NCBI GenBank assembly: GCA_963932905.1
Contig: CAWVRN010000033.1
Span: forward strand, 1-43,296
Source: an uncultured Bdellovibrio sp.
Lineage (GTDB): Bacteria; Bdellovibrionota; Bdellovibrionia; Bdellovibrionales; Bdellovibrionaceae
Direction of reading: 5' to 3'
DNA: 43,296 nucleotides
Positions 1 to 14,080 of this stretch are shown here, piece by piece. Each line of letters opens with the position of its first letter. The stretch's first letter is position 1. The notes beneath the pieces were generated by a model that saw only the letters and a list, made by a program, of their open reading frames with translations, had not been told where the DNA came from and made no database searches. Position numbers and translations under genes: made by a program.

Positions 1-1345
1 TTGCTCTGAGCGTGGAATAACCAATGCCTAGAGCTTCCGACGCAATCTTTAAATTGTTTTGAGATCTTTTGATTCCATCTGAAATTAAGTTCTTTTCTAA
101 ATTTTTAACGAAAATATTCAAATCAGAAAAATCTTTGATTTGCGGAGTTGAGCTAACTTGATTTTCTTCAGCGAAAAATTTTGAATCCAAATGAATTGGT
201 TCAATCTTGTTTACAGGTAGAGTCAGCATAATACGCTCGACTTCATTTTCAAGCTCGCGGATATTGCCACTCCATTTATAGAGTTCCATCAATTTTATTG
301 TCTTCATTAGAAATACCTTGTCACTACCCCGGTATTTTTTTTGAAAATACAAAACAAGCGGACGGAGATCTTCTGGACGTTCTCGAAGCGGGTAAGTCTT
401 TATTTTTAAAACGTTAAGACGGTAGTATAGGTCCTCGCGGAATGTTCCATCTTTAACGGCTTTCTCAAGCTCTTTGTTAGAGGCGGCAATGACTCGAACG
501 TCCACTTTTTCCGGTTTATTGCTTCCAAGTGGGAAGAAGTCACCGTCTTGAAGAACTCGCAGAAGGCGGGCTTGAAGGTCCAATCGTAGTTCGGCAATTT
601 CATCTAAAAATATAGTTCCGCTATGGGCAAGTTTAAATTTTCCAACTTTGTCGGCAATAGCTCCGGTGAACGAGCCTTTAGTGTGACCAAACATTTCACT
701 TTCAAAAAGTTCTGGCGAGAGCGTTGCAACATTGAGCTGAACAAACGGGCGATTTTTTCTATCAGACAAATTATGCAGGGCACGAGCTACTAATTCTTTT
801 CCAGTGCCGGTTTCACCGTAGATGACGACATTGCAATCGCTGCTAGCGGCTGCTTTAATTGTTTTTGCTACTTCTGCTAATTTGGGTGATCGTCCAATCA
901 TTCCAACAGATTTAATAATCTCTTCGCAGTGACTTGGAGTGTCTTCTGGCTGAAGAGTCTGAAACGTATCTTCAAATTTTTTGCAAAACGATTTTAGGTT
1001 TTTTAGGAGTTCGTGGCTTGATATGCCTTTATCTAAAAACTCAACCGCGCCAGCAGCATAACTTGTTTTGATTGCCTCTCTCGTTTGATCACCAGAGTAA
1101 ACGGCAATAAGTAAATCGGGATTAACTTCCAGAAGCTTTTTCGTTGTTTCGGCCCCACTTAAAACTGGCATTAAGTAATCCATAATTATAACTGAAAACA
1201 GGCGTGGATTCTTTTCAACTAAGCGAATCGCATCCTGGCCTGAGCTAACCCAGTGTATATCCAAGGTAGGCTCAGCAGCTGTCGATCGCTTAAAGTCTTC
1301 AGCAATTAGCGGGTCGTCGTCGACCAATAGAACTTTGTGAATCAT
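1..1345 (-). CDS. Sigma54-dependent response regulator (NtrC family: receiver, AAA+, Fis-type HTH); 3' end runs off the window
   Basis: Not in the ORF track because there is no stop in the window. Hand translation from ATG 1345 (RBS GGGGG): MIHKVLLVDDD...IIMDYLMP (receiver), GETGTGKE (Walker A), ESEMFGHTKGSFTGA (GAFTGA loop), TIFLDEI (Walker B), FREDLYYRLNV, WSGNIRELEN, and ASEALGIGYSTLR (HTH) at the edge. Confidence 0.95.
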   Translation of the reverse strand, partial: MIHKVLLVDDDPLIAEDFKRSTAAEPTLDIHWVSSGQDAIRLVEKNPRLFSVIIMDYLMPVLSGAETTKKLLEVNPDLLIAVYSGDQTREAIKTSYAAGAVEFLDKGISSHELLKNLKSFCKKFEDTFQTLQPEDTPSHCEEIIKSVGMIGRSPKLAEVAKTIKAAASSDCNVVIYGETGTGKELVARALHNLSDRKNRPFVQLNVATLSPELFESEMFGHTKGSFTGAIADKVGKFKLAHSGTIFLDEIAELRLDLQARLLRVLQDGDFFPLGSNKPEKVDVRVIAASNKELEKAVKDGTFREDLYYRLNVLKIKTYPLRERPEDLRPLVLYFQKKYRGSDKVFLMKTIKLMELYKWSGNIRELENEVERIMLTLPVNKIEPIHLDSKFFAEENQVSSTPQIKDFSDLNIFVKNLEKNLISDGIKRSQNNLKIASEALGIGYSTLRA

Positions 1346-1804: not shown

Positions 1805-2434
1805 CTATACAACTTGTCGAAGGTTTACTTTTTCCAATTGGGAATGGCAGTGTTTAATCATAGACGAATAAAGAAAGTGGCTTACTTCCAAATTTTCAAT
1901 TATTGCCGTGTGCCGGTGTTGGGCGAAGTTCTCGATCATTTTCATCGTGTTTGGAAAATGAACTCTATCTGCTTCGTCATGAACACTGAGATATTCGGAG
2001 TCTACACCAAAAGACTTTTTGATTCGCGTCCCTACTTTCGAGCATTGCTTTGTGCTTAACCCTTCTAGTAACAGCGAAATACCAAACAATGCATCGGCTC
2101 CCTTGGTCTCTAATTCATAGTATATAAATGCCACCAAAGATTTTGTCGGAGGTGAAATAGGTAATAATTCAGAGAATCCTAACTTATTCAAATCGTCGAT
2201 AATTAGGTCATCGTGATTGAATTCCCCAGTTAAGTGCTGAATTCTTTCTTGAAATTCTTCTTTTCTTTCAAATGGTAGTAGCGATGCGCCAATGGCTTCA
2301 TATCGTGTGGAATTTTGTATTAGGTAATACTGTTGAGAAAAAAACAAATGACATGCTTGTTTGTTTTCAAAAGGATATTTGTCCAACATTGCCGAGATAT
2401 CTTCAATTTTCGCTTCAAATAGGGATCGAATCAC
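1805..2434 (-). CDS. Heme-oxygenase-like diiron oxidase (HDO / iron-containing redox enzyme)
   Basis: All-helical 209 aa with the HDO ligand set: HLTGEFNHD (E-x2-H), LLEG (E), HDEADRVH (H-x3-D-x2-H). Overlaps the upstream gene by 4 nt. Confidence 0.8.
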   Translation of the reverse strand: MIRSLFEAKIEDISAMLDKYPFENKQACHLFFSQQYYLIQNSTRYEAIGASLLPFERKEEFQERIQHLTGEFNHDDLIIDDLNKLGFSELLPISPPTKSLVAFIYYELETKGADALFGISLLLEGLSTKQCSKVGTRIKKSFGVDSEYLSVHDEADRVHFPNTMKMIENFAQHRHTAIIENLEVSHFLYSSMIKHCHSQLEKVNLRQVV

Positions 2435-3114
2435 GCTACCTCCTGGATATTCTTACCGCCGATTTCGACCTTGGAGCCCCATAAATCGTCAGTAATTTGT
2501 TTAACTTCTTTTTTGGGATAAATTTTAGCATCAAAAGAAACCTGATAGCTGACGGGTGTATTGTTATAGTTTCCGTCTGGTATGCAGGAGGCAAAATTCA
2601 TTTTTGCTAATGAATTAGAAACGCCTAAGTCTTTTCTCCCCACCGACACCACGGCATCAACATTTTCAATTTTTTGCTGAAGGACCGATAGCGAAGCCAT
2701 AACCGCAGGCATATAAATAAATGGTGTTTCTTTGCGTTTTTGCCAAGTAGGGCTAAATGCCAAATACTGTAAGGCTAATATGCGATTTACATTATTTTTT
2801 TTAAAAAAATCTCCAAACTGGGGCGTGAATCTACTAAAATACCTTTGCCCTGATTGCAGATTGGTGTTGGCAATTCCCAACAAATGCATAGTAACGATTT
2901 CATTTTTATATACGATAACTGTAATTTTCTGTTGGTCGAAAAAATCGTTATCATCCACCCTAGAGCTAATATGCAACCTATCTAAAATATCGTTCCAGTA
3001 CTGACGCCAAAAGTTAAAAAAAAGGGTTTGCATTTCCTTTTCTGAGTTTGAAAGTACTCCTCGTTGATCTAAAACTATATGAGAGTAATCGCTGCTTCTG
3101 AACGTGCCTTCCAT
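2431..3114 (-). CDS. GNAT-fold acyltransferase-like protein (remote LuxI/FeeM-like)
   Basis: Strong RBS AAGGAGG. DDNDFFD followed by beta strands, then YLAFSPTWQK (motif-A-like) and AVVSVGRKDLGVSNSLAKMNF (motif-B-like). The fold call is by pattern only. Confidence 0.55.
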   Translation of the reverse strand: MEGTFRSSDYSHIVLDQRGVLSNSEKEMQTLFFNFWRQYWNDILDRLHISSRVDDNDFFDQQKITVIVYKNEIVTMHLLGIANTNLQSGQRYFSRFTPQFGDFFKKNNVNRILALQYLAFSPTWQKRKETPFIYMPAVMASLSVLQQKIENVDAVVSVGRKDLGVSNSLAKMNFASCIPDGNYNNTPVSYQVSFDAKIYPKKEVKQITDDLWGSKVEIGGKNIQEVA

Positions 3115-3231
3115 GGCACCTCCTTTGGAAATAGGCTATTTGGATTTCACAGATTAGGCAAATTTACTTGATTTAGTTGAATTAATTCTAGATGTTTGTC
3201 AGGAGTGAAAACTGGGAACAGAGGTGATTTT

Positions 3232-3747
3232 TTGAATTCAAAAAAAAGTGAAAATTCATTATTTATTGGTGATCGCGTCAACGCTCTACTTTTGGAGAGG
3301 AAGATTTCAGTTGAGTGGCTGTCCAAAGAAATTAAAGTTCGGAAATCCATTCTCCTTCTATATCTATCTGGAAAACGAAAACCAGACGTTAATACAATTG
3401 AAAAAATAGCTAAGGCTTTGGGGATATCTAAAACTGAACTTTTAAATTCTACTTCCTCAAGTAACCAGTTTTCGAAGTACGACTTGGTCGAAATTTTTAT
3501 CGACTCTTTAAATGAATTTCAACGTCGCAACTCGTTTTCAAATATCGGTACAAATGAGTTTGCAGCTCTTTTGGAAATGACGAGTAAACTAGGTGGATGG
3601 AAAAAAGTTATGAAAATATTAGATCGTGAGATATTTGAGATGGACTTTAGAGAATCAAATTTCCAAAAAAACAAGAAGCACCTTCTTGCCGAATCTACTT
3701 CCCGCCGTAGTCCGCCTCTAAAGCCTACAAAAAAGAAGGCGGTTTAG
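3232..3747 (+). CDS. XRE-family HTH transcriptional regulator
   Basis: IGDRVNALLLERKISVEWLSKEIKVRKSILLLYLSGKRKPDVNTIEKIAKALG is an HTH_3 pattern. TTG 3232 follows GAGGTG; the ORF is open from 3196. Confidence 0.88.
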   Translation: MNSKKSENSLFIGDRVNALLLERKISVEWLSKEIKVRKSILLLYLSGKRKPDVNTIEKIAKALGISKTELLNSTSSSNQFSKYDLVEIFIDSLNEFQRRNSFSNIGTNEFAALLEMTSKLGGWKKVMKILDREIFEMDFRESNFQKNKKHLLAESTSRRSPPLKPTKKKAV

Positions 3748-3748
3748 T

Positions 3749-4135
3749 GTGCTAAAGCGTTCCTTCACTAGCAAGTTTATTTTGGAACTTAGAATGCGCA
3801 GAGGCTATTCAATAGCCTATATTGCGCATTTGATGGATTGCTCAATAGTGAAATATATTCAACTTGAAGAATATCCACTGAAAAATTCAGCAAAAATGCT
3901 TAAAAATTTTTTTAAATGCATTGAAATAACACAGGAAGAGAAAAGGGCTTTTTTAGATATATACTTCTATGATTCCATTGAAAAATTAAATGAAATGCAT
4001 TCTGTGCCGAATTTAGTAAATAATAATGACTTAGAAAAAGACACTAATGATTTTCCATTCAATGTTATATCTTTAGCTGGCCGTAGATCAATTGAACTTC
4101 AGAAAGATAAGGAAATGAAAAAAGATGCTGATTAG
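3749..4135 (+). CDS. XRE-like HTH protein
   Basis: FILELRMRRGYSIAYIAHLMDCSIVKYIQLE resembles an XRE HTH. Tightly coupled to both neighbours. Confidence 0.65.
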   Translation: MLKRSFTSKFILELRMRRGYSIAYIAHLMDCSIVKYIQLEEYPLKNSAKMLKNFFKCIEITQEEKRAFLDIYFYDSIEKLNEMHSVPNLVNNNDLEKDTNDFPFNVISLAGRRSIELQKDKEMKKDAD

Positions 4136-4865
4136 CTCCGATCAAACCCGTATCAAATTTGACAATTCGAGCGATCGTTTTGAATTTCTTTACGATTTGA
4201 CTCAAAACCTGAGTATTTATTTAAAATCTTCAGAAAATATAAATATCAATGTTCCGGACGAAGCCTCATTGAAAGAATATGAGGACAAATTTCTTGCTCT
4301 TCCTGAGGCCCTTAAGAAAGCCAAAATTCAGAATTTCATTCAATACTATGACCATTGTTGCGAAATGGTTTTGAGTGGTGCTACTTTAAAGGATAAACTC
4401 CAAAGCTTAAAAGCATACTGTCACACCTATGGATTGGTTATTCCATCTAAGGATGAAATTTATTCTTTGATTGATAAAGACACTTTCGTTGAAATCTATG
4501 ACAGTAATTTATTGCAACGATATAGAAGTCCGGAATGGTTAGAGACAATCTCTTATAGCATTTTAGATGTTGAATTAACTGATTGGAGAGAGCTTTTCTT
4601 CAGAGCCGAACAGTTTGTATCTGCTCAAATTGAAATTGTTTCCGCTTTGTATTCAGGTAAAATCACTCAGCCTGTTTATAAACCCATAGCGATTCATACG
4701 GTAAAGGAAACGAAATCGAAAAAACCGTATTGTGTTGAACTAGAATCTTTGGCTTATTCCCCAATCTATAGTCTTCAAGGTGATTTTGTTGGAGGAATAC
4801 ATATATTAAAACTCTATAATCTAAGGCGCCTTGATTTTGGTTTGATCAAAGAAGTAAGCATTTAA
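4125..4865 (+). CDS. Stand-alone PAS-like domain protein
   Basis: VEIYDSNLLQRYRSPEWLETISYSILDVELTDWRELF matches the PAS core pattern and VELESLAYSPIYSLQGDFVGGIHIL matches the PAC motif. No kinase or HTH output domain. Confidence 0.55.
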   Translation: MLISSDQTRIKFDNSSDRFEFLYDLTQNLSIYLKSSENININVPDEASLKEYEDKFLALPEALKKAKIQNFIQYYDHCCEMVLSGATLKDKLQSLKAYCHTYGLVIPSKDEIYSLIDKDTFVEIYDSNLLQRYRSPEWLETISYSILDVELTDWRELFFRAEQFVSAQIEIVSALYSGKITQPVYKPIAIHTVKETKSKKPYCVELESLAYSPIYSLQGDFVGGIHILKLYNLRRLDFGLIKEVSI

Positions 4866-5137
4866 TTCTGCTTACCGTAAATCTTGTTTTTTAAACTGAT
4901 TCGCTGATTATCAAGTATTGCATCGATCCACAAAATAACAAATTTATCTGGATCTTCTCTTAAAAGGTCCGCGAGAAACAAAACCTTATTTAGAGGAAAA
5001 CGTGTATAGTCACCAGATTCGGCGTGAGACAACGTTGAAATTGCGACATTTAACTTTCTAGCCAATTGAGTTTGATTTAAGCCTAATGCAATTCTTTTCT
5101 TTTTAAGATAGTTATAGAACTTTTCTTCTCTGATCAT
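4862..5137 (-). CDS. XRE-family HTH transcriptional regulator
   Basis: YLKKKRIALGLNQTQLARKLNVAISTLSHAESG. Likely start is ATG 5137 (ORF open from 5221). Confidence 0.88.
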   Translation of the reverse strand: MIREEKFYNYLKKKRIALGLNQTQLARKLNVAISTLSHAESGDYTRFPLNKVLFLADLLREDPDKFVILWIDAILDNQRISLKNKIYGKQN

Positions 5138-5277
5138 AGTTTCACTAATTTGTAAAAAGATATACCTGAGAAAAAAAGGTGTCAACTTATTTGCTATAAG
5201 AATACTCAAGCCGAATTTCACAAATTAGGAAAAATATATTTCGGTAAGATGTATTACCTACTAAACTAATGGATTGA

Positions 5278-5667
5278 ATGATTCATCCATTAGTTAGAAA
5301 AAAAATTCTTTTAGTAGAAGCAAATAAAGATTCAGAAGCGTTAACAAAGAGTCTATTAGAAACACAATTTGCAAACGAATTGCAAATTTGTAGTGCTAAC
5401 GCCATCCAAGAGGCTATTGATTTTTTAAAATCTAGCAAAATCGATTTCGTAGTAAGCGCATTCGTATTTTCCGATGGAAACGGCATAGAAATTTATAATT
5501 ACATATGCGAAAGCAAACAGTCGATTAAACTCGTTTTTTATACAGGACACTTAGTTTTTGAATTTCCGACGCAGGAGAAGTTCTTCTATGGATTTCTTCA
5601 AAAGCCGGACACGCAAAGCCTGATTGATTTCATTGAGCAAGTTTGGTTAGCAAAGAGTGAGCGATAG
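5278..5667 (+). CDS. Single-domain receiver protein, atypical (pseudo-receiver)
   Basis: CheY-like pattern KILLVEAN...DFVVSAFVFSDGNG...FYTG...LQKP. The phosphoacceptor Asp position holds Ala. Confidence 0.8.
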   Translation: MIHPLVRKKILLVEANKDSEALTKSLLETQFANELQICSANAIQEAIDFLKSSKIDFVVSAFVFSDGNGIEIYNYICESKQSIKLVFYTGHLVFEFPTQEKFFYGFLQKPDTQSLIDFIEQVWLAKSER

Positions 5668-5908: not shown

Positions 5909-8900
5909 ATGTATCGCTTAACGGCTATCGCAATTCTATTGTATGCTCAATTCGTGCTTGCTCAAAACACCGCCGATCAGGTCAGCGTCTTTCCAGATAA
6001 GACCTACCGTGGCTCCTTCAAATCGGTCAATCAAGCTACCGAGACTGTTAGTGTCACTTCAGACGCAATCAAAAATGATTTCATAATTAAGCTAAAAAAC
6101 GCCGATGGCCAAAATCATGAAAATGTCGTCTGCACGGGCGGACTATTTCAAAAACTATCATGCGGCCTTAAGAATCTTGCCAACCTTCTTTATAGAGAGT
6201 TGGTTCGTGTAGAATACGCAGAAATTACTTGGAACGGCAAAAAAGTTGTCGATGCTAGCACCTTTAATAGAAACGTAGCCGCTGTTTCGATCTCTGTGAA
6301 ACCCGAGCTAAGCAATTCCCTAGTTATCAAATATAAAGGACTTCCTACTTCGTCTTTGACCCTTGGAATATATCGCACTTCTTCACCGAAGGACACTACA
6401 GCGCCGACGATACTGACGCAGCTCCGTAGTAGCACATTCACAAATCAAAAATCGGTGGCCGTGGAAATTCAGGATATTTCCAATGTCACATCCACAGTTT
6501 CCATCAATGGGGCCGTAGTTAAATCGTCAACGGCAAAAAGTTTTACCTTCGATCTTGTGAATGGAAACAATAATATTGAAATCAAATCTCAAGACCAGTT
6601 TAACAACACGGCTTCGCCAGTACTGATTTCAAATGTGGTTTTAGATCAAACAAACCCAAGTATCGCATTGTCTTCGAATGCTTCTATTTATGTTAACTCG
6701 CTACCAAAAACTTTAGCTGTCCAACTTATCTCAAACGAGTCTTTGAAATCGCTTCTTGTGAATTCAAATCAGGTTTCGCTTGATGAGAGTGGAAAAATTG
6801 GCCTCTATAATTTAAGCATTTTGCAATCTGGCGCCAATAGTGTCGCCGTTCAAGCGACAGATCTAGCTGGAAATGTATCAAATCAAAATCTATCGCTTTC
6901 GGTAATTCTCGACAACACCGCCCCTGCAATTTCTTTTGGAATAGCTGAAGGAACACTAACTAATCAAAGCTTGATCGTAATCCCTGTCAAAATCACAGAG
7001 GCCAATGATGTTCACTCGATAATAAAAGTTAACGGCGTGGATGTACTCAGAACCGGCGCCAAGGAATTTGATTTCGAAGCTAGTCTTTTATTAGAAGGTG
7101 AAAATCAAGTTCAGGTTGAAAGTACGGATATTGCGGGGAATACAACTAACTCTGCTGTCTTAAAAGTTTACAAAGATACGGTAGCGCCTATACTTTCGCT
7201 CACATCACCAAGTTCCGGTCAGATTTTACAGGACATTCAGTTTGTAGTTGCTGGTTCATTCAATGAACCAGTTTCTAGCTTTAAAATAAATGGGAAAGAT
7301 GTTCTTTTGTCTGCTGATAAGAAATCATTTTCAATTTACTATTTAACTCAATTCGAAGGAGTTCAGGAAATCGCCTTTTCCGCTGAGGACCTCGTTGGCA
7401 ACAAATCTGAGAAGACAGTATCTATTGAAATTCACTCTCCTCTTTTGGTTCCCGAGCTTATTTCTCTGACTCAATTAGACAACAAGGTGATAATTCATGG
7501 AGCACAGCAAGCATCTCGCCCTGGCTTAACTATTAAAGCGAGCGAGGGATTTTTGAGTTTCAATACGGACGAGTCTGTTGTCAACGCTGATGGCAGTTTC
7601 ACGCTTTCGCTTACTCCATTTCAAACAGCGACAGTTTCAGTTGAAGATCCTCGTGTAAATCAAAAGTCAGCGACAGCTGTTCACTTTTCGGGAACAACAC
7701 GCTTGTCCGGAATTATCCGCGATATCAATGACGTTGCGATTCCAAATGTTACCGTTTCATTATCTGGAACCTCATTTCAGACAGTAACTAATGGCCAAGG
7801 TGCTTTTAGTTTCGAACTTGATATTTCAGGAGACCAGACATTAAATTTTGATGGATCAACGGTTCCGGCTTCGTTCACAGGTCCAAATCGATATTTCTCT
7901 AAATCATCTATGTCTATAAATCTCGGCTATGCTCAGCAAAATACTCTTGAGCGGCCCGTGTATCTTACACCTGTGTTGCTTGATGGTACTCAAACGCAAA
8001 TCACATCAAATCAACCCGCGACTGTTTCAAGCTCTCACGCACCTGGCGTTCAAATTTCCATTCCTGCAAGCAGCACAGTATTTCCATCCGGAGGTGGTCA
8101 AGGAAGTATCAATGTAATGACTATTCCATCTGAAAAAGTCACTGTGCCTGTTCCAGAAAGCGCAGTGCCGAAAGAAGTCGTGTCTCTTGAACCCTCTGGG
8201 CTCAAATTTAATAAAAGAGTTGATTTGACCCTTCCTAACGCTTACGACCTGAAAGCAAATACCGATGTCGTTATTTTTAGTATGAACTCGGCAAAAGGTG
8301 CCTGGGAAATCGATGGGATCGCCAAGGTTTCAAGTGATGGGCAGTCAATTAAAACAATTCCAAATCAGGGTATTTCACATTTTAGTATCGTTTACGCCGT
8401 TCCCCTAATGCCGACTCTTACTAGCGTAGTAGACAGCAACTTAAGAGCAATAGATAGCAGCAAAGATTCGTTTGAAACTAGCATCCAGTTACCTAGTTTT
8501 AAAATCGGCGACGATTCAGTTTCTCCAAGTTTAGTTTACAAATCGAATTGGGCAAATCCGACCGCGTTTGTTTCTAACTATATTGAACTTCCTGAAAAGC
8601 ATGTGTCTTACTCGATTAAGGGATCTACGCAATCAAACACTTACACATCAGTCTATGTGGGAGAAACATGTTCTTTGTTTAAATGTTGGGACCGTTACGC
8701 TGACTTTTATCTGAATACATTTTACAGTAACAGTACAAATTTATTCTCGGCTTATGTTCCTACCGGAATCAAATCTCAGTTTTTTATTAGTTCCCTAAAA
8801 TCGAGTGACGCCATAACTGGTAATATTTCTAGTGACTACTCATTGGTAACTTCTGAACTCTTCAGCGATGGCGAGCGCCAAGGAATAATGTCCAAGCCAT

Positions 8901-11900
8901 CAAACTTTGGCCAAATCTCAACCCCTGATCCGACACAAGGTATTCCACTTCGAAATGTGGTTTCTTATGCAGTTGAATTAAAAGACCCGATTACAAACAA
9001 ATATATAGAATCAGGTCTTTACCCATCTCTTGCTCGGTACGAAATTCAATTGAAAAACATTTCAGTCAAGACCGTTCAAAACATTTCATCAGTATCTGGT
9101 AGATATGATTCATCGTATATCCCAGTTAATAAAAGGGAATTTAGCCAATATATCAATGATCAAAAAACAACGCTTGAAACTCAAGTCTTAGCTGATTTTT
9201 TAGAGAAAGACGTTTCCGCCAACGTGATCGTACAAAACAAGGTCGAGTCAGCTTCGGGACGCGGATGGAAAATCGGAGGCTATCAGCAAATTTTAAATCC
9301 TTCAGCGCGAAGTATAGTAATAGAAGAGGCAAATGGTTCTGTATCATCCTATGAAATGAGTAATATCATATCCACAGTTTACAAATCTAATAATCCTTCA
9401 ATTAAAATGGATCAGTCATTAGATTTTTCTCAATGGCCAAAGATCACAACAAGTTATGTTGCTAGTGATGGCAAATACTATTTGGGGGAATTAGACCTAG
9501 CTCAGCCTTCACCGAGCCTGGCTGGCCTTTTTGAAATACCAACTTTAACCGGACAGCTAGGCAATCAAGGAACATACAAATGTATGGAGTCTCTTTATGC
9601 TGGAGTATTTTCAACAACAAATCACGCCTACCGCTTTCAGCCAAAAATTTTCGGTTTAAAAAAGTCAGGATCAGGAAAATGGATAGCATCAGATAGTCGA
9701 TCACATAGAGTTATCGAAATTAGTTCTTCCACTAGAGATATCGCTGGCTACAGGTCCGACATTGAAAGTGTTTTAAATCTAAATTACAGCATCGAACGGA
9801 TAGACGCCAATTTAGACGGCGTAAATCAAACGTGCCAAAGCATTTTTGGCGGCAATTGCGGCGATCCAGTTGTAGCGCAGTCAAACTTATCTTGCTCATG
9901 GGCGCAACCACCTATATGTCAACCCGGTCAAATTTGTAAACCAACTCCTGCTCCAAAATTTATTTCTAGCACGGGGGATGGGTACTTAGCTTTATATGAA
10001 GGAGATGGCGTAGCCAACGTGGCCGCTAATTCGATTGGATTAAACTCTCCGCAGGGAGTTATAGTTGATACGTCTCAGAATGTTTATATCGCTGACTTTG
10101 GAAACAATAGAGTTCGCAAAATTGACTCTCAAACGGGAAGTATTTCAACAATCGCAGGTAATGGAGGAAATTTAAACTTTCCAGAAAATCCTGGTTCACC
10201 TTTAGATGTTTCAATTTATCATCCAAAACAACTGCTATTGAGCTCCACTAATGATCTGTTTATCTCATCAGAAAAAGGTTTTATTTTAAAGTTATCCTCT
10301 TCAGGTGTGATTCAAAAAATCGCGGGATTGCCTGTTGATCTTGGCGGTGTTTATGCGAATCAATCTAACTCGCTAGTCATGGCGATGAATAATCCTAGCG
10401 GAATGGCTCTCGACGAATCTAAAAATTATCTTTATATCGCAGATACTGGATACCACCGAGTAATAAGAGTCGATTTAAATAATCAGCAAGCCGATGTCAT
10501 TGGTGGCACAGGTTCATGTAACTTACAGGTAAGTGGTGATGGGTTCGCGGCAATGAATGCATCGATTTGCGGTCCAACCCAACTCTATTTAGATAGTGAT
10601 AAAAATCTAATTGTTCAAGAATCTGGACGCGGAGCAATTAGGAAAATTCAGTTTTCTGAAGGCAATGCAAATCAAGAGCTAGGTTTTATTGCAAATAACA
10701 AAGACTCCTCAACTCTTGTTAAAAAAGTTGATGGAACTTGGGTGAGAAACAATCGAGATGGCTCGAAAATATATTTTAATATAAACGGTCTTCAGACATC
10801 ACAAGTAGATATGATCGGTCGTGCCAATAACTACCTCTACGACTCTAATAGTCGGTTAGAAAAAATCGAATTCTTTACCGGACAATATTTAAACTATAGT
10901 TACTCTGGAAGTCTTTTATCCTCGATTTCAGATTCTTCAAATAGAACAACGTCTTTTTTCTATTTAGATGGAAAATTGAGCCGAGTACATTTACCTGATG
11001 GGTCAGAGAAAAGCTATAGCTACAACGACAAAGGTATGATGCTTTCAGAGCAGAATCAGTTAGGTCAAAACTTAAAAATCGAATATCTGGAAAACAACCG
11101 TATTTCAAAAATAAAACTACCTGACAATACAGAAGTTCAATTTGGTGATGCTGTCTCTAAATCCACGGTAACTGGCAATGATAATTCTCTTTTGAATGGC
11201 ATCGGTGTTGACCCGAGCCAAAATAATTCCAGTATTGTCGATGCAAAAGGTGGAAAAACGGTTTTAGTTTCAGACATCAATGGATTCACTTCTTTAGTTT
11301 CAAATGCAATGGGAGCGCAAACGACTATTAATCGCGACTTTGAAGGTAATCCCCTGGCCATTTTCAAACCGTCAGGATATGCGATGCATTTCACTTACGA
11401 TTCCCAAACAAGAGACGTTCTGTCGACAAGCGAATTCTATCATCTGGACGCATTTCCGATAATAACAAAGTATAAATATAACAGTAGGGGACAGGTCTTA
11501 ACAGAAACGCAATCAGTTCAATCTACACCTGATCAGGTAGTTTCTAAGGAATACAGCCCCGAAGGGCTGCTTCAAAAAGTGATGTCCCCAAACGGAAGCC
11601 GAGTTGAAATGACTTACGACTCCGGCGGCTTTTTGAAATCGAAAACGGTTTTTCCATCTAGTTCCGGGACTGGTTTGACCACCACTTATATTCGCAATCA
11701 AAAAGGATGGGTCACTCGACTTGTTGGTCCGGACTCAAAAGAGGTTAATTTTACCCATGATCTTTCTGGGAATGTAATTGAAAAAATTGAAAATGTCGCC
11801 TTAGGAGTAACTGCCATTACGAAATACAATTATGATTTAAATAATCGATTGATTCAAATCACGACTCCGAAAAGTGAGGTAACAAAATACAATTATGACG

Positions 11901-14080
11901 AACTTGGCAATCTGGTTTCCATTTTAGATCCAAAAAATAGAATGACTAGTTTTGAATATAACTCAAGAAACTGGCCATTGAAGAAGACCGATGCCTTCGG
12001 CGCCATAACGGAAATGAACTATGATAGCAACGGAAATATGGTCTATGTTAAAGATCCAAATGGACATGTCCAATCTATGGAATACAATTTAGTTAATGAT
12101 ATAACAAAGGTTTATCTTCCAGACGATACAATTAACTATGCATATGACATTCCTGGAGATAAGCCAGTTTCAATTAGCAATAAGAATTCAAAAATTTCCT
12201 ACTTTAGGAACTTGAAAGGCCAAAATTTATACGAATCTATTACCGGCGCTGGAGAGTTAAGTAACTACCCAGAGTTTTCGATTTCTTCGGATTATAATCC
12301 GAGAGGCTTACTGTCAGAGCAACAAACAACAATAGGTAACTTTCAATATAATTATGACGAACTTAATCGCCTAACTAGCATGAACGCGAATTCTAAAAAT
12401 TTTAATTTTAGGTATGACGATGCCTCTAGGCTATCAGAGTTTTCTAGTGGCCCAATCAGAACAGTTCTGAGCTACCAAGATCAGAAGTTGAATAAAATTC
12501 TTTATTTAAAATCAGACGTTACTATAGCCGAACATGAGTATAGTTATAATTTGCGTAATTACCCTTCGCAAAAGAGAAACTTAGCAAGTGTCACTGATTA
12601 CTCGTACGATTCAAATGGGCAGTTGACTCAAGCAAGTGGCGCTACAAATGAAGCCTTTACTTACGACAATATCGGAAATCGGTTAAGCGATAATTCTAGA
12701 TCTTATGAATACGACATTACAGGACAAAGACTAAACCAAGACACGTTTTTCACTTACCAATATGACAATAATGGTAATCTTATAAATAAAATTTCTAGAG
12801 ATGGATTAAAAGAATCCCATCACTATGAATACTCTAGTATGAACCAGTTGATAAAAGTTCAAGTTATGAGTGGTTCAATTGGATCGCTCTCTACGATTAA
12901 GGAGGTCCAGTACGCATATGATGTGTTGGGTAGGCGAATGCAAAAAGAAGTTAAGGACTTCATTAACTCAAAAGCCTATACAAGAAAATTTGCTTACAAT
13001 GGATCTAGTATTATAGCAGAATTTGATAGCGGCAATGCCTTACTGGCAAAATATACTCATTCGCCACTTTCTGCCGATGATCTACTTTCAGTAGATATTA
13101 CTACTCAGGGTGTCGCTGCCAATTTAGGTAGTTTTGTAGGAACATATTATTATTTAAAAGATAATTTAAACTCTGTTTCTGAAATTACGGATTCGAATGG
13201 CAATATTGTTCAGAAATTTGAATATTCGAGTTACGGCGAGATTAGTAAAATTAAAGACTCCGGCGAGAATTTATTAACTTTTAATCAAGCGCCCATTAGA
13301 ACAAGTTTTACATTTACAGGAAGAGAATTTGACTCCGAAACAGGGTTATATTTTTACCGCGCACGCTACTATGATGCGAGCTCTGGTAGATTTTTACAAC
13401 AAGACCCTAATGCTGGATATTTGTCTCACTCCTTAACCATTGTAAATAAATATCTCTATGCAGTTAACAACCCGATCTCATTTTCTGATCCAAGCGGCAG
13501 AGACATATGGGATGAACTAGGTAAAGGTCTTTCAATTGCTGCAGGGGTTGCCGTTGCGTTCTACGCCGGTGCTTACATTGCTGCATACCTCGGAATTTCA
13601 GGTGTAACCGGCGCAATCGTAGGGGCTTTTACCGGAGCTTTGGTTGGTGGTACGACTACAGCAATTGGTTATTCATTGTCACACGCTAATCCTAATGAAG
13701 GATTCAGGATTGGAGCGTCTGCAGGCCTTTTTTCTGGCGGCGCTGGTGGTTTCCTGGGCAGCAGTGTTGTAAGTGCGGGTAAAGCTTATTCAATCACATC
13801 AGACCAAGTTTACTCATTTGTAAAAAGTCAGGCATCCAGTGCGGCTTCAGGATTTCAGGGAGGATCGGAATTGGTAAACGCAGGAGCTAAGTACTATGCA
13901 CTTGATGGTTGGCCAATTTGGTCGACTATGGCAAGCTATGCAAATGCAGTGTTGCCTTACGCGGTGGCGACTGGTGAAGCCGCAGCGATTGGATATTTGG
14001 ATAAATGTACGGGAGCTCGTGATTGTTCAGAGCTAAATGCGCTAATACCTAACTCCCGCTCTCAAACTTGGAAATGGTAA
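5909..14080 (+). CDS. Secreted teneurin-like Rhs/YD-repeat polymorphic toxin
   Basis: Sec signal peptide; Ig-like repeats (DTTAPTI, DNTAPAI, ATDLAGN, ~6390-7440); carboxypeptidase-regulatory-like domain (~7700-7980); ZU5-like domain ending in HFS (8378-8386); NHL repeats (LNSPQGVIVD..VYIADFGNNRVRKID, ~10040-10655); YD repeats; Rhs core FTGREFDSETGLYFYRARYYD...NPISFSDPSG (ends 13498); Gly/Ala-rich hydrophobic C-terminal tip. Confidence 0.93.
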   Translation: MYRLTAIAILLYAQFVLAQNTADQVSVFPDKTYRGSFKSVNQATETVSVTSDAIKNDFIIKLKNADGQNHENVVCTGGLFQKLSCGLKNLANLLYRELVRVEYAEITWNGKKVVDASTFNRNVAAVSISVKPELSNSLVIKYKGLPTSSLTLGIYRTSSPKDTTAPTILTQLRSSTFTNQKSVAVEIQDISNVTSTVSINGAVVKSSTAKSFTFDLVNGNNNIEIKSQDQFNNTASPVLISNVVLDQTNPSIALSSNASIYVNSLPKTLAVQLISNESLKSLLVNSNQVSLDESGKIGLYNLSILQSGANSVAVQATDLAGNVSNQNLSLSVILDNTAPAISFGIAEGTLTNQSLIVIPVKITEANDVHSIIKVNGVDVLRTGAKEFDFEASLLLEGENQVQVESTDIAGNTTNSAVLKVYKDTVAPILSLTSPSSGQILQDIQFVVAGSFNEPVSSFKINGKDVLLSADKKSFSIYYLTQFEGVQEIAFSAEDLVGNKSEKTVSIEIHSPLLVPELISLTQLDNKVIIHGAQQASRPGLTIKASEGFLSFNTDESVVNADGSFTLSLTPFQTATVSVEDPRVNQKSATAVHFSGTTRLSGIIRDINDVAIPNVTVSLSGTSFQTVTNGQGAFSFELDISGDQTLNFDGSTVPASFTGPNRYFSKSSMSINLGYAQQNTLERPVYLTPVLLDGTQTQITSNQPATVSSSHAPGVQISIPASSTVFPSGGGQGSINVMTIPSEKVTVPVPESAVPKEVVSLEPSGLKFNKRVDLTLPNAYDLKANTDVVIFSMNSAKGAWEIDGIAKVSSDGQSIKTIPNQGISHFSIVYAVPLMPTLTSVVDSNLRAIDSSKDSFETSIQLPSFKIGDDSVSPSLVYKSNWANPTAFVSNYIELPEKHVSYSIKGSTQSNTYTSVYVGETCSLFKCWDRYADFYLNTFYSNSTNLFSAYVPTGIKSQFFISSLKSSDAITGNISSDYSLVTSELFSDGERQGIMSKPSNFGQISTPDPTQGIPLRNVVSYAVELKDPITNKYIESGLYPSLARYEIQLKNISVKTVQNISSVSGRYDSSYIPVNKREFSQYINDQKTTLETQVLADFLEKDVSANVIVQNKVESASGRGWKIGGYQQILNPSARSIVIEEANGSVSSYEMSNIISTVYKSNNPSIKMDQSLDFSQWPKITTSYVASDGKYYLGELDLAQPSPSLAGLFEIPTLTGQLGNQGTYKCMESLYAGVFSTTNHAYRFQPKIFGLKKSGSGKWIASDSRSHRVIEISSSTRDIAGYRSDIESVLNLNYSIERIDANLDGVNQTCQSIFGGNCGDPVVAQSNLSCSWAQPPICQPGQICKPTPAPKFISSTGDGYLALYEGDGVANVAANSIGLNSPQGVIVDTSQNVYIADFGNNRVRKIDSQTGSISTIAGNGGNLNFPENPGSPLDVSIYHPKQLLLSSTNDLFISSEKGFILKLSSSGVIQKIAGLPVDLGGVYANQSNSLVMAMNNPSGMALDESKNYLYIADTGYHRVIRVDLNNQQADVIGGTGSCNLQVSGDGFAAMNASICGPTQLYLDSDKNLIVQESGRGAIRKIQFSEGNANQELGFIANNKDSSTLVKKVDGTWVRNNRDGSKIYFNINGLQTSQVDMIGRANNYLYDSNSRLEKIEFFTGQYLNYSYSGSLLSSISDSSNRTTSFFYLDGKLSRVHLPDGSEKSYSYNDKGMMLSEQNQLGQNLKIEYLENNRISKIKLPDNTEVQFGDAVSKSTVTGNDNSLLNGIGVDPSQNNSSIVDAKGGKTVLVSDINGFTSLVSNAMGAQTTINRDFEGNPLAIFKPSGYAMHFTYDSQTRDVLSTSEFYHLDAFPIITKYKYNSRGQVLTETQSVQSTPDQVVSKEYSPEGLLQKVMSPNGSRVEMTYDSGGFLKSKTVFPSSSGTGLTTTYIRNQKGWVTRLVGPDSKEVNFTHDLSGNVIEKIENVALGVTAITKYNYDLNNRLIQITTPKSEVTKYNYDELGNLVSILDPKNRMTSFEYNSRNWPLKKTDAFGAITEMNYDSNGNMVYVKDPNGHVQSMEYNLVNDITKVYLPDDTINYAYDIPGDKPVSISNKNSKISYFRNLKGQNLYESITGAGELSNYPEFSISSDYNPRGLLSEQQTTIGNFQYNYDELNRLTSMNANSKNFNFRYDDASRLSEFSSGPIRTVLSYQDQKLNKILYLKSDVTIAEHEYSYNLRNYPSQKRNLASVTDYSYDSNGQLTQASGATNEAFTYDNIGNRLSDNSRSYEYDITGQRLNQDTFFTYQYDNNGNLINKISRDGLKESHHYEYSSMNQLIKVQVMSGSIGSLSTIKEVQYAYDVLGRRMQKEVKDFINSKAYTRKFAYNGSSIIAEFDSGNALLAKYTHSPLSADDLLSVDITTQGVAANLGSFVGTYYYLKDNLNSVSEITDSNGNIVQKFEYSSYGEISKIKDSGENLLTFNQAPIRTSFTFTGREFDSETGLYFYRARYYDASSGRFLQQDPNAGYLSHSLTIVNKYLYAVNNPISFSDPSGRDIWDELGKGLSIAAGVAVAFYAGAYIAAYLGISGVTGAIVGAFTGALVGGTTTAIGYSLSHANPNEGFRIGASAGLFSGGAGGFLGSSVVSAGKAYSITSDQVYSFVKSQASSAASGFQGGSELVNAGAKYYALDGWPIWSTMASYANAVLPYAVATGEAAAIGYLDKCTGARDCSELNALIPNSRSQTWKW

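Follow-up and report, generated by a model that had tools for sequence, protein, structure and literature searches.

Does a short run of genes near the start of a contig from an uncultured Bdellovibrio sp. encode both the enzymes that make a small molecule and the receptor that senses it? The window, i.e., the whole stretch of DNA that was analyzed, comprises 43,296 nucleotides (nt) (GenBank assembly GCA_963932905.1, contig CAWVRN010000033.1, positions 1 to 43,296 of the forward strand); between positions 1805 and 5667 it carries the genes for a heme-oxygenase-like diiron oxidase (HDO) and a GNAT-fold acyltransferase, which are divergent from an operon that includes the gene for a stand-alone PAS protein. 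Predatory Bdellovibrio-type bacteria have been studied as living antibiotics, and Bdellovibrio bacteriovorus is genetically tractable; no description of a self-made chemical signal in bacteria of this type was found in the open-access literature searched. We propose that the window holds a diverged copy of a cassette that occurs across the phylum Bdellovibrionota and that would make and sense a small molecule. That the cassette encodes a pathway for a small molecule together with a sensor dedicated to it appears probable to us; the full chain, in which the enzyme pair makes an acylated, oxidatively tailored small molecule that is sensed by the PAS protein together with an XRE-family protein, we regard as evenly poised between right and wrong. 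Every gene listed in an initial annotation of this DNA was found at the same coordinates in the open reading frame (ORF) listing of the window, and those of the cassette are as follows.

1805-2434, minus strand: HDO of 209 amino acids (aa) with a PF14518 match; its start overlaps the stop of the GNAT gene by 4 nt.
2431-3114, minus strand: predicted GNAT-fold acyltransferase of 227 aa, from a family without a Pfam model, with LuxI/FeeM-like topology and the C-terminus -EVA.
3115-3195: intergenic region from which the enzyme pair and the regulator operon diverge; with the TTG at 3232 as the start of XRE1, it would reach to 3231.
3196-3747, plus strand: XRE1, XRE-family helix-turn-helix (HTH) protein (HTH_19 37.9 bits, HTH_3 31.1 bits) with an uncharacterized C-terminal half.
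3749-4135, plus strand: protein of 128 aa whose gene is translationally coupled to that of the PAS protein; it may be a degenerate HTH.
4125-4865, plus strand: stand-alone, sensor-like PAS protein of 246 aa, with an N-terminal four-helix domain and a C-terminal PAS fold.
4862-5221, minus strand: XRE2, XRE-family HTH protein (HTH_3 39 bits), convergent with the PAS gene.
5278-5667, plus strand: pseudo-receiver (REC fold; Response_reg 33.1 bits), of uncertain membership in the module.

With regard to the acyltransferase, the initial annotation had proposed a LuxI/FeeM-like GNAT fold and had set this as a check beforehand; the proposal was upheld by structure prediction and comparison. An AlphaFold2 model of the 2431-3114 product (pLDDT 88.5, pTM 0.86) had FeeM (2g0b), SbzI, and BjaI as its top Foldseek matches in the PDB (E about 6e-7), and a total of 192 PDB matches were obtained at E≤0.001, those listed being all GNATs. 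When chains were re-aligned with VIA-align, 831 of 999 reached Z≥8, with the best score for RpaI (Z 15.4, 194 of 212 residues aligned), compared to Z about 14 for BjaI and Z 14.1 for FeeM 2g0b (169 residues aligned); the alignments to RpaI, BjaI, and MesI cover model residues about 10-225. Because the alignments to RpaI, BjaI, and FeeM are full-length and those to generic GNATs end at residue 195, the protein is predicted to have a GNAT fold of LuxI/FeeM-like extent. At the level of sequence profiles, neither Pfam (E≤1) nor NCBIfam yielded a match for the protein. The LuxI-type autoinducer synthase profile PF00765 matched neither the window GNAT (E≤1) nor 11 of its relatives (E≤10), the FeeM profile PF21926 did not match, with the structural match to 2g0b being no better than that to generic GNATs, and a profile of the GNAT family found nothing at E≤1 among PDB sequences. 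LuxI-type synthases (e.g., LuxI and EsaI) share conserved N-terminal S-adenosylmethionine-binding and catalytic residues. The clusters nearest to the window GNAT in the ESM Atlas are Bdellovibrionota hypothetical proteins without a Pfam family.

The partner enzyme is more readily classified. The 1805-2434 product matches PF14518 (Haem_oxygenas_2) with E 8.8e-9 and 35.9 bits, above the gathering cut-off of 28.9, and residues E71, H74, E124, H152, D156, and H159 are invariant in 25 HDO family sequences, including that of the window. We take these six residues (three histidines and three carboxylates) to be metal ligands, on the basis of the E/ExxH/E/HxxxDxxH pattern of HDOs. By sequence, the protein is thus classified as an HDO with all six metal ligands, and the claim of a complete ligand set in the initial annotation stands. 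The solved structure nearest to the profile of this family is 3dde, an uncharacterized structural-genomics protein (E 1.6e-20), followed by MboA (1.5e-6), p-aminobenzoate (pABA) synthase (1e-3), UndA (0.03), and BesC (0.09).

If these genes form a functional unit, they should be expected to stay together in other genomes, and co-occurrence of GNAT, HDO, PAS, and XRE genes, as anticipated in the initial annotation, was borne out phylum-wide. A word-based search of 5.8 billion sequences identified only four close relatives of the GNAT and five of the PAS protein; a GNAT profile matched 976 representative clusters out of 1.84 billion proteins and had matches in 184 of 301 genomes of the order and in 110 of 301 genomes of the phylum Bdellovibrionota. 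From the best-scoring matches and from complete genomes, 40 loci of approximately 15 kb were assembled (a sample that is not random), in which ORFs of at least 70 aa were scored with family hidden Markov models (HMMs), giving 42 GNAT genes in 41 sources. An HDO gene is located within 300 nt of the GNAT gene in 36 of the 42 cases, and an HDO or fatty-acid desaturase gene within 1.5 kb in 40; a PAS protein is encoded within 3 kb in 34, and a member of the partner XRE family within the same distance in 20. Two genomes encode GNAT-HDO fusion polypeptides, namely G175 (455 aa) and G536, which lies outside the order (469 aa). Loci outside the order retained the GNAT-HDO pair in six of six cases, the PAS protein in five, and an XRE gene within 1.5 kb in four. 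The genome of the window encodes exactly two GNAT, two HDO, and one PAS copy, all within its two cassettes, and in five complete genomes the single high-scoring HDO gene always adjoins a GNAT gene. Since the same families recur together in other genomes, the arrangement is far beyond chance; adjacency in 36 of 42 cases and two fusions support a functional coupling of GNAT and HDO.

The cassette has diversified considerably. Up to five very divergent GNAT copies were found per genome, with paralogs about 20% identical and on long branches, and in the GNAT tree the window sequence and that of the sister genome G006 stand alone on a very long branch (3.2 changes per site). Cassette neighborhoods vary across the phylum; in Bdellovibrio, the cassette is located beside cell-wall and thioredoxin genes. 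According to the public names of identical proteins, genus g9 in our set is Bdellovibrio, and three cassette proteins of G089 are identical to CAE80272-CAE80274, recorded under Bdellovibrio bacteriovorus. In the same public records, the HDO is listed as "iron-containing redox enzyme family protein", and both the GNAT and the PAS protein are listed as "hypothetical protein".

On the side of the putative receptor, the PAS domain that the initial annotation had assigned to the 4125-4865 product was confirmed at the level of the fold. In the AlphaFold2 model (pLDDT 90.8), residues 15-101 form four helices and residues from about 105 to 236 a PAS fold; Foldseek identified LOV/PAS matches with a target-normalized TM of about 0.6, and in a wide VIA search that was independent of Foldseek the best 50 rows were all PAS/LOV domains (Z 6.4-9.5; about 100-115 residues aligned at about 3 Å), including the lipid-binding PAS domains of HIF-3alpha and RpfR. 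Pfam PAS profiles did not match the window protein, and among 24 family members a single faint PAS_9 match (E 0.18) was obtained. Residues E123, L157, R160, H191, and E195 are invariant in the family. The protein is the sole copy in its genome, and a metagenome scan returned the identical contig and two weak partial matches only.

The claim that the regulator operon encodes two HTH proteins fared differently for its two members. XRE1 exceeds the HTH_19 gathering threshold (37.9 versus 30.2 bits), so that this part stands; for the 128-aa protein, no Pfam match was found, and hhalign against the profile of the XRE partner family placed it in the correct register, but with a probability of 1.3% and E 0.04, short of statistical support for an HTH. 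The genes are closely packed, with a gap of 1 nt between XRE1 and the 128-aa gene and an overlap of 11 nt between the latter and the PAS gene. Orthologs of XRE1 were identified by jackhmmer in the window and G006 only, and the sole ortholog of the 128-aa protein is that in G006. The assignments of XRE2 as an XRE protein and of 5278-5667 as a pseudo-receiver also held. XRE2 matches HTH_3 with 39 bits (gathering threshold 23) and aligns with 17 partner XREs from other loci, and is thus predicted to be a diverged member of the family to which these partners of the PAS protein belong. The 5278-5667 protein has Ala in the acceptor column, where two true receivers have Asp, and its acidic pair is reduced to one Glu; it is classified as a pseudo-receiver because the phospho-acceptor Asp is replaced by Ala.

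From the established folds, HDO metal ligands, and conserved gene linkage, we infer every chemical and regulatory step of the following model. Given its LuxI/FeeM-like fold, the GNAT would move an acyl group from acyl-acyl carrier protein (acyl-ACP) or acyl-coenzyme A (acyl-CoA) to an amine acceptor. For the translationally coupled HDO, a subsequent oxidation (desaturation, hydroxylation, or decarboxylation) of the resulting molecule or of its acyl chain is suggested by the known chemistry of the HDO family and by the replacement of HDOs by fatty-acid desaturases in some loci. The product would be an oxidized acyl amide or a related lipid-like molecule, which may be held in the PAS pocket with the invariant polar residues E123, R160, H191, and E195. 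Because the PAS protein lacks a DNA-binding domain, it would act on transcription through a small neighboring XRE-type HTH partner, and the divergently oriented enzyme genes are probably among the targets. A membrane histidine kinase would replace the PAS sensor in sister cassettes.

Exchanges of partners among the loci bear on this model as well as on alternatives to it. A membrane fatty-acid desaturase (PF00487) occupies the position of the HDO in two loci (L045 and L069), which argues that the oxidase acts on an acyl chain; a fatty-acid desaturase gene is also located nearby in L065, L075, and L076. Among eight GNAT loci without a PAS protein, six have a histidine kinase gene beside the GNAT-HDO pair; these six loci represent three lineages, as four are syntenic Bdellovibrio loci, and in the GNAT tree the kinase-linked genes require three label changes. 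Between the kinase of the second cassette of the window genome (G000:C43) and that of G103, identity is 33% over 458 aa, a match that takes in a long hydrophobic N-terminal region in which membrane spans were judged by eye from the sequence; hmmsearch found no homology between the kinase sensor regions and the PAS family. Both the exchange of HDO for desaturase and that of PAS protein for kinase would fit the logic of a synthase and its receptor.

That second cassette (G000:C43:12490-13848, L071) consists of a GNAT-HDO pair without a PAS protein, adjoining a 486-aa histidine kinase, the N-terminal half of which is hydrophobic, and a 159-aa receiver.

The presence of desaturases also raises the possibility of membrane aminolipid remodeling, in which an OlsB/FeeM-like N-acyltransferase would supply the lipid, the HDO or desaturase would edit its chain, and the PAS-XRE proteins or kinase would sense the state of the membrane, in the way that DesK-DesR senses membrane state for the des desaturase. 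We consider this quite unlikely. It is consistent with the occurrence of fatty-acid desaturases in 5 of 42 loci, either instead of the HDO or in addition to it, with the XRE and PAS pair beside a desaturase gene without a GNAT gene in L086, with the long hydrophobic N-terminal region of the kinases adjoining the pair, and with the finding, as a lead only, that the nearest Pfam-bearing clusters in the ESM Atlas include FeeM and Acetyltransf_5 clusters (score 0.93). Membrane-forming aminolipids, however, need a second (O-)acyltransferase, which was not found among the scanned neighbors; the distribution (184/301 genomes of the order and 110/301 of the phylum) is patchy for a housekeeping lipid, and up to five very divergent copies per genome, with paralogs about 20% identical, likewise argue against such a role.

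Some loci add to the cassette genes for methyltransferases, AMP-binding enzymes, B12/radical-SAM enzymes, an acyl-ACP thioesterase, and a major facilitator superfamily (MFS) transporter, all typical of small-molecule pathways and in favor of the proposed model, as well as for hydrolases. As a second alternative, the enzymes could make a specialized, lipid-like metabolite that is secreted against prey or competitors, or a surfactant, with the PAS-XRE proteins or kinase sensing a cue other than this product and switching the pathway on. The enzyme evidence is identical for this explanation and for the favored one, and the methyltransferase, AMP-binding, radical SAM, and MFS genes would suit it, as would the gene for a Tle1-like phospholipase effector beside the pair in L043, the RHS protein beside the pair in the window, and the occurrence of the PAS family away from the enzymes. 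We nevertheless judge it unlikely, in view of the tight linkage of the sensor across a great evolutionary distance (34/42 loci; 5/6 outside the order) and of the finding that the PAS sensor is replaced by a kinase rather than merely lost; linkage and replacement of this kind are patterns of cognate synthase-receptor pairs.

Two of the loci with additional genes deserve a brief description. In L058 (G033:C11:25000-44000), two complete cassettes are arranged in tandem with an MFS transporter gene between them, and each is preceded by a gene for an AMP-binding-type enzyme of about 435 aa; G033 has an additional GNAT copy on this contig and another on a different contig. In L043 (G208:C1), a GNAT-HDO pair without a sensor adjoins genes for a type VI secretion system (T6SS) Tle1-like phospholipase and for an FMN reductase.

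A number of observations weigh against the proposal that the cassette makes a signal and senses it through paired PAS and XRE proteins. The gene calls are the longest ORFs obtained with an in-house script rather than with a gene finder. None of 11 members of the GNAT family matched any GNAT or autoinducer-synthase Pfam model at E values up to 10, and small generic GNATs, ending at residue 195, equal acyl-homoserine lactone (AHL) synthases in Z. The XRE partner is found in fewer than half of the cases (20/42) and is mostly absent from Bdellovibrio proper; in the window itself, the family-type XRE2 is convergent with the PAS gene and not co-transcribed with it, and both proteins that are co-transcribed with the PAS gene are specific to the lineage of the window and G006. 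In the five complete genomes, 7 of 17 matches to the PAS family are located beside a GNAT gene and 10 elsewhere, with 4 of these 10 solo matches carrying an in-frame stop. Among six solo copies examined, from G089, G085, G204, and G171 (L083-L088), three have an XRE partner next door, and one of the loci, L086, combines PAS, XRE, and fatty-acid desaturase genes without a GNAT gene. With more members than the synthase family, the PAS family may be a general regulator; the solo copies resemble LuxR solos and would equally fit a lipid-sensing regulator family or control of lipid homeostasis.

With these points in mind, a still broader proposal is put forward tentatively, at somewhat less than an even chance: the cassettes of these obligate predators may constitute a phylum-wide, autoinducer-like family in which GNAT-HDO pairs, in some cases fused, make diverse oxidized acyl signals, split PAS-XRE receptors or membrane kinases perceive them, solo receptors occur in addition, turnover involves ssrA-like tails, and the window represents a fast-evolving variant.

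Comparison with known systems places the putative synthase-receptor cassette closest to several established types of cell-cell signaling and acyl amide pathways. Like LuxI/LuxR AHL systems, including those with the CoA-dependent synthases BjaI, RpaI, and MesI, the cassette combines a synthase of GNAT fold, with the same length and topology, with adjacent genes for ligand-sensor and HTH functions, and in L058 an AMP-binding enzyme precedes the synthase, as would be expected if an unusual acid had to be activated beforehand. Unlike LuxI, the cassette GNAT has no Autoind_synth sequence match and has an obligatory diiron oxidase partner, and unlike LuxR, which is one chain, the putative receptor is split between a PAS protein and an XRE HTH protein. 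In CqsA/CqsS, LqsA/LqsS, and LuxM/LuxN, the synthase gene is found beside that for a membrane sensor kinase; the cassettes without a PAS protein, including that on G000:C43, similarly have a kinase with a long hydrophobic N-terminus, but the enzyme families differ.

FeeM synthases are represented by 2g0b, the top Foldseek match of the GNAT (E 6e-7), and, as in the Fee cluster and in the Mycobacterium tuberculosis tyz cluster (PMC10404671), an N-acyltransferase would be combined with an oxidative tailoring enzyme to yield a modified lipid-like amide. The cassette differs from FeeM systems in that its GNAT has no FeeM Pfam match, an HDO takes the place of a nitroreductase-family oxidase, and a dedicated sensor is linked. 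The cassette HDO shares PF14518 and the six-residue metal site with UndA, BesC, MboA, and CADD/pABA synthases. To our knowledge, no characterized HDO has a GNAT or a sensor as its partner. UndA uses fatty acids as substrates, and MboA introduces a double bond into a peptide side chain (PMC13185094; PMC13108848); the HDO context in the MboA paper differs from that of the cassette (PMC13185094), and a term search of a 2026 review on HDOs gave no mention of GNAT, acyltransferase, signal, or Bdellovibrio (PMC13108848). No description of the cassette was found in the open-access literature searched, and we regard it as a predicted new version of the known pairing of synthase and sensor, built from GNAT and PAS families that lack Pfam models and from an uncharacterized HDO subfamily. 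It provides a concrete candidate for a self-made signal of Bdellovibrionota, of which no component carries an informative public name; if the proposal is correct, natural-product chemistry would gain a new enzyme pairing (GNAT and HDO), as well as a receptor composed of separately encoded PAS and XRE chains.

The genes that flank the cassette in the window raise one further question, i.e., whether this region is rather a toxin or defense island. Two neighbors are relevant here.

2-1345, minus strand: NtrC-type sigma-54 activator (REC-AAA+-Fis HTH; Sigma54_activat 227.5 bits), a neighbor only.
5909-14080, plus strand: RHS/YD-repeat ORF of 2723 aa, directly downstream of the cassette.

The Sigma54_activat profile match confirmed the presence of a sigma-54 activator near the cassette. 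Control of the adjacent RHS toxin or island, which had been raised as a possibility in the initial annotation, was not borne out, as that neighborhood is shared by the window and its sister genome G006 but is absent from the other 39 loci; among the compared loci, the RHS gene (cut by the contig end in G006), the pseudo-receiver gene, and the sigma-54 activator gene are common to these two genomes only, and comparative support for toxin control was not obtained. A toxin-antitoxin, defense, or mobile-island cassette, with the GNAT as toxin, the XREs as antitoxins, and an RHS toxin beside them, is highly improbable in our view. The XREs weakly match HTH models of toxin-antitoxin antitoxins and of defense systems, G+C content dips locally (0.335-0.347 over 3-6 kb of the window, versus approximately 0.40 on both sides), and the RHS gene is next door; against this, the GNAT, HDO, PAS, and 128-aa proteins had no PADLOC matches and the XREs only generic HTH matches, the cassette is chromosomal with differing neighborhoods across the phylum, nothing in toxin-antitoxin systems corresponds to the obligatory HDO partner or to the fusions, and the RHS neighbor is restricted to the window and G006. 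At its N-terminus, the RHS ORF has a signal-like segment, and its C-terminal region is hydrophobic and rich in Gly and Ala.

The C-termini of the enzymes show a pattern of their own. In tail counts from loci L039-L078 and representatives P0035-P0183, the last residue of full-length GNAT representatives (n=141) is Ala in 102 cases, and the last two residues are AA or VA in 82; for HDOs (n=36) the respective numbers are 27 and 24, compared to 26 and 8 for 454 other ORFs in the same loci. This ssrA-like tail is retained irrespective of gene order; in the window, the GNAT ends in -EVA (2431-2436) and the HDO in -QVV (1805-1810). The tail may serve as a signal for degradation, so that the GNAT and HDO would be short-lived.

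Finally, the intergenic DNA was searched for regulatory elements. The divergent region at 3115-3195 is near-identical in the G006 ortholog, and no conserved operator or promoter could be defined between the enzyme and regulator genes; scans of the intergenic DNA for sigma-70 promoters and for repeats gave nothing beyond chance (11 sites versus 14.5 expected). A sigma-54-like TGGCAC-N5-TTGGA sequence at 3114-3129 was rejected, given that two sites with one mismatch were found versus a mean of 1.12 in shuffled sequences and that it overlaps the ribosome-binding site of the GNAT gene and is absent from the G006 ortholog. In the gap that separates the divergent XRE and pseudo-receiver genes, a perfect 11-nt inverted repeat (AACTAATGGAT-N10-ATCCATTAGTT, 5264-5295) spans the start codon of the latter and could function as an operator or form a translation-blocking hairpin.

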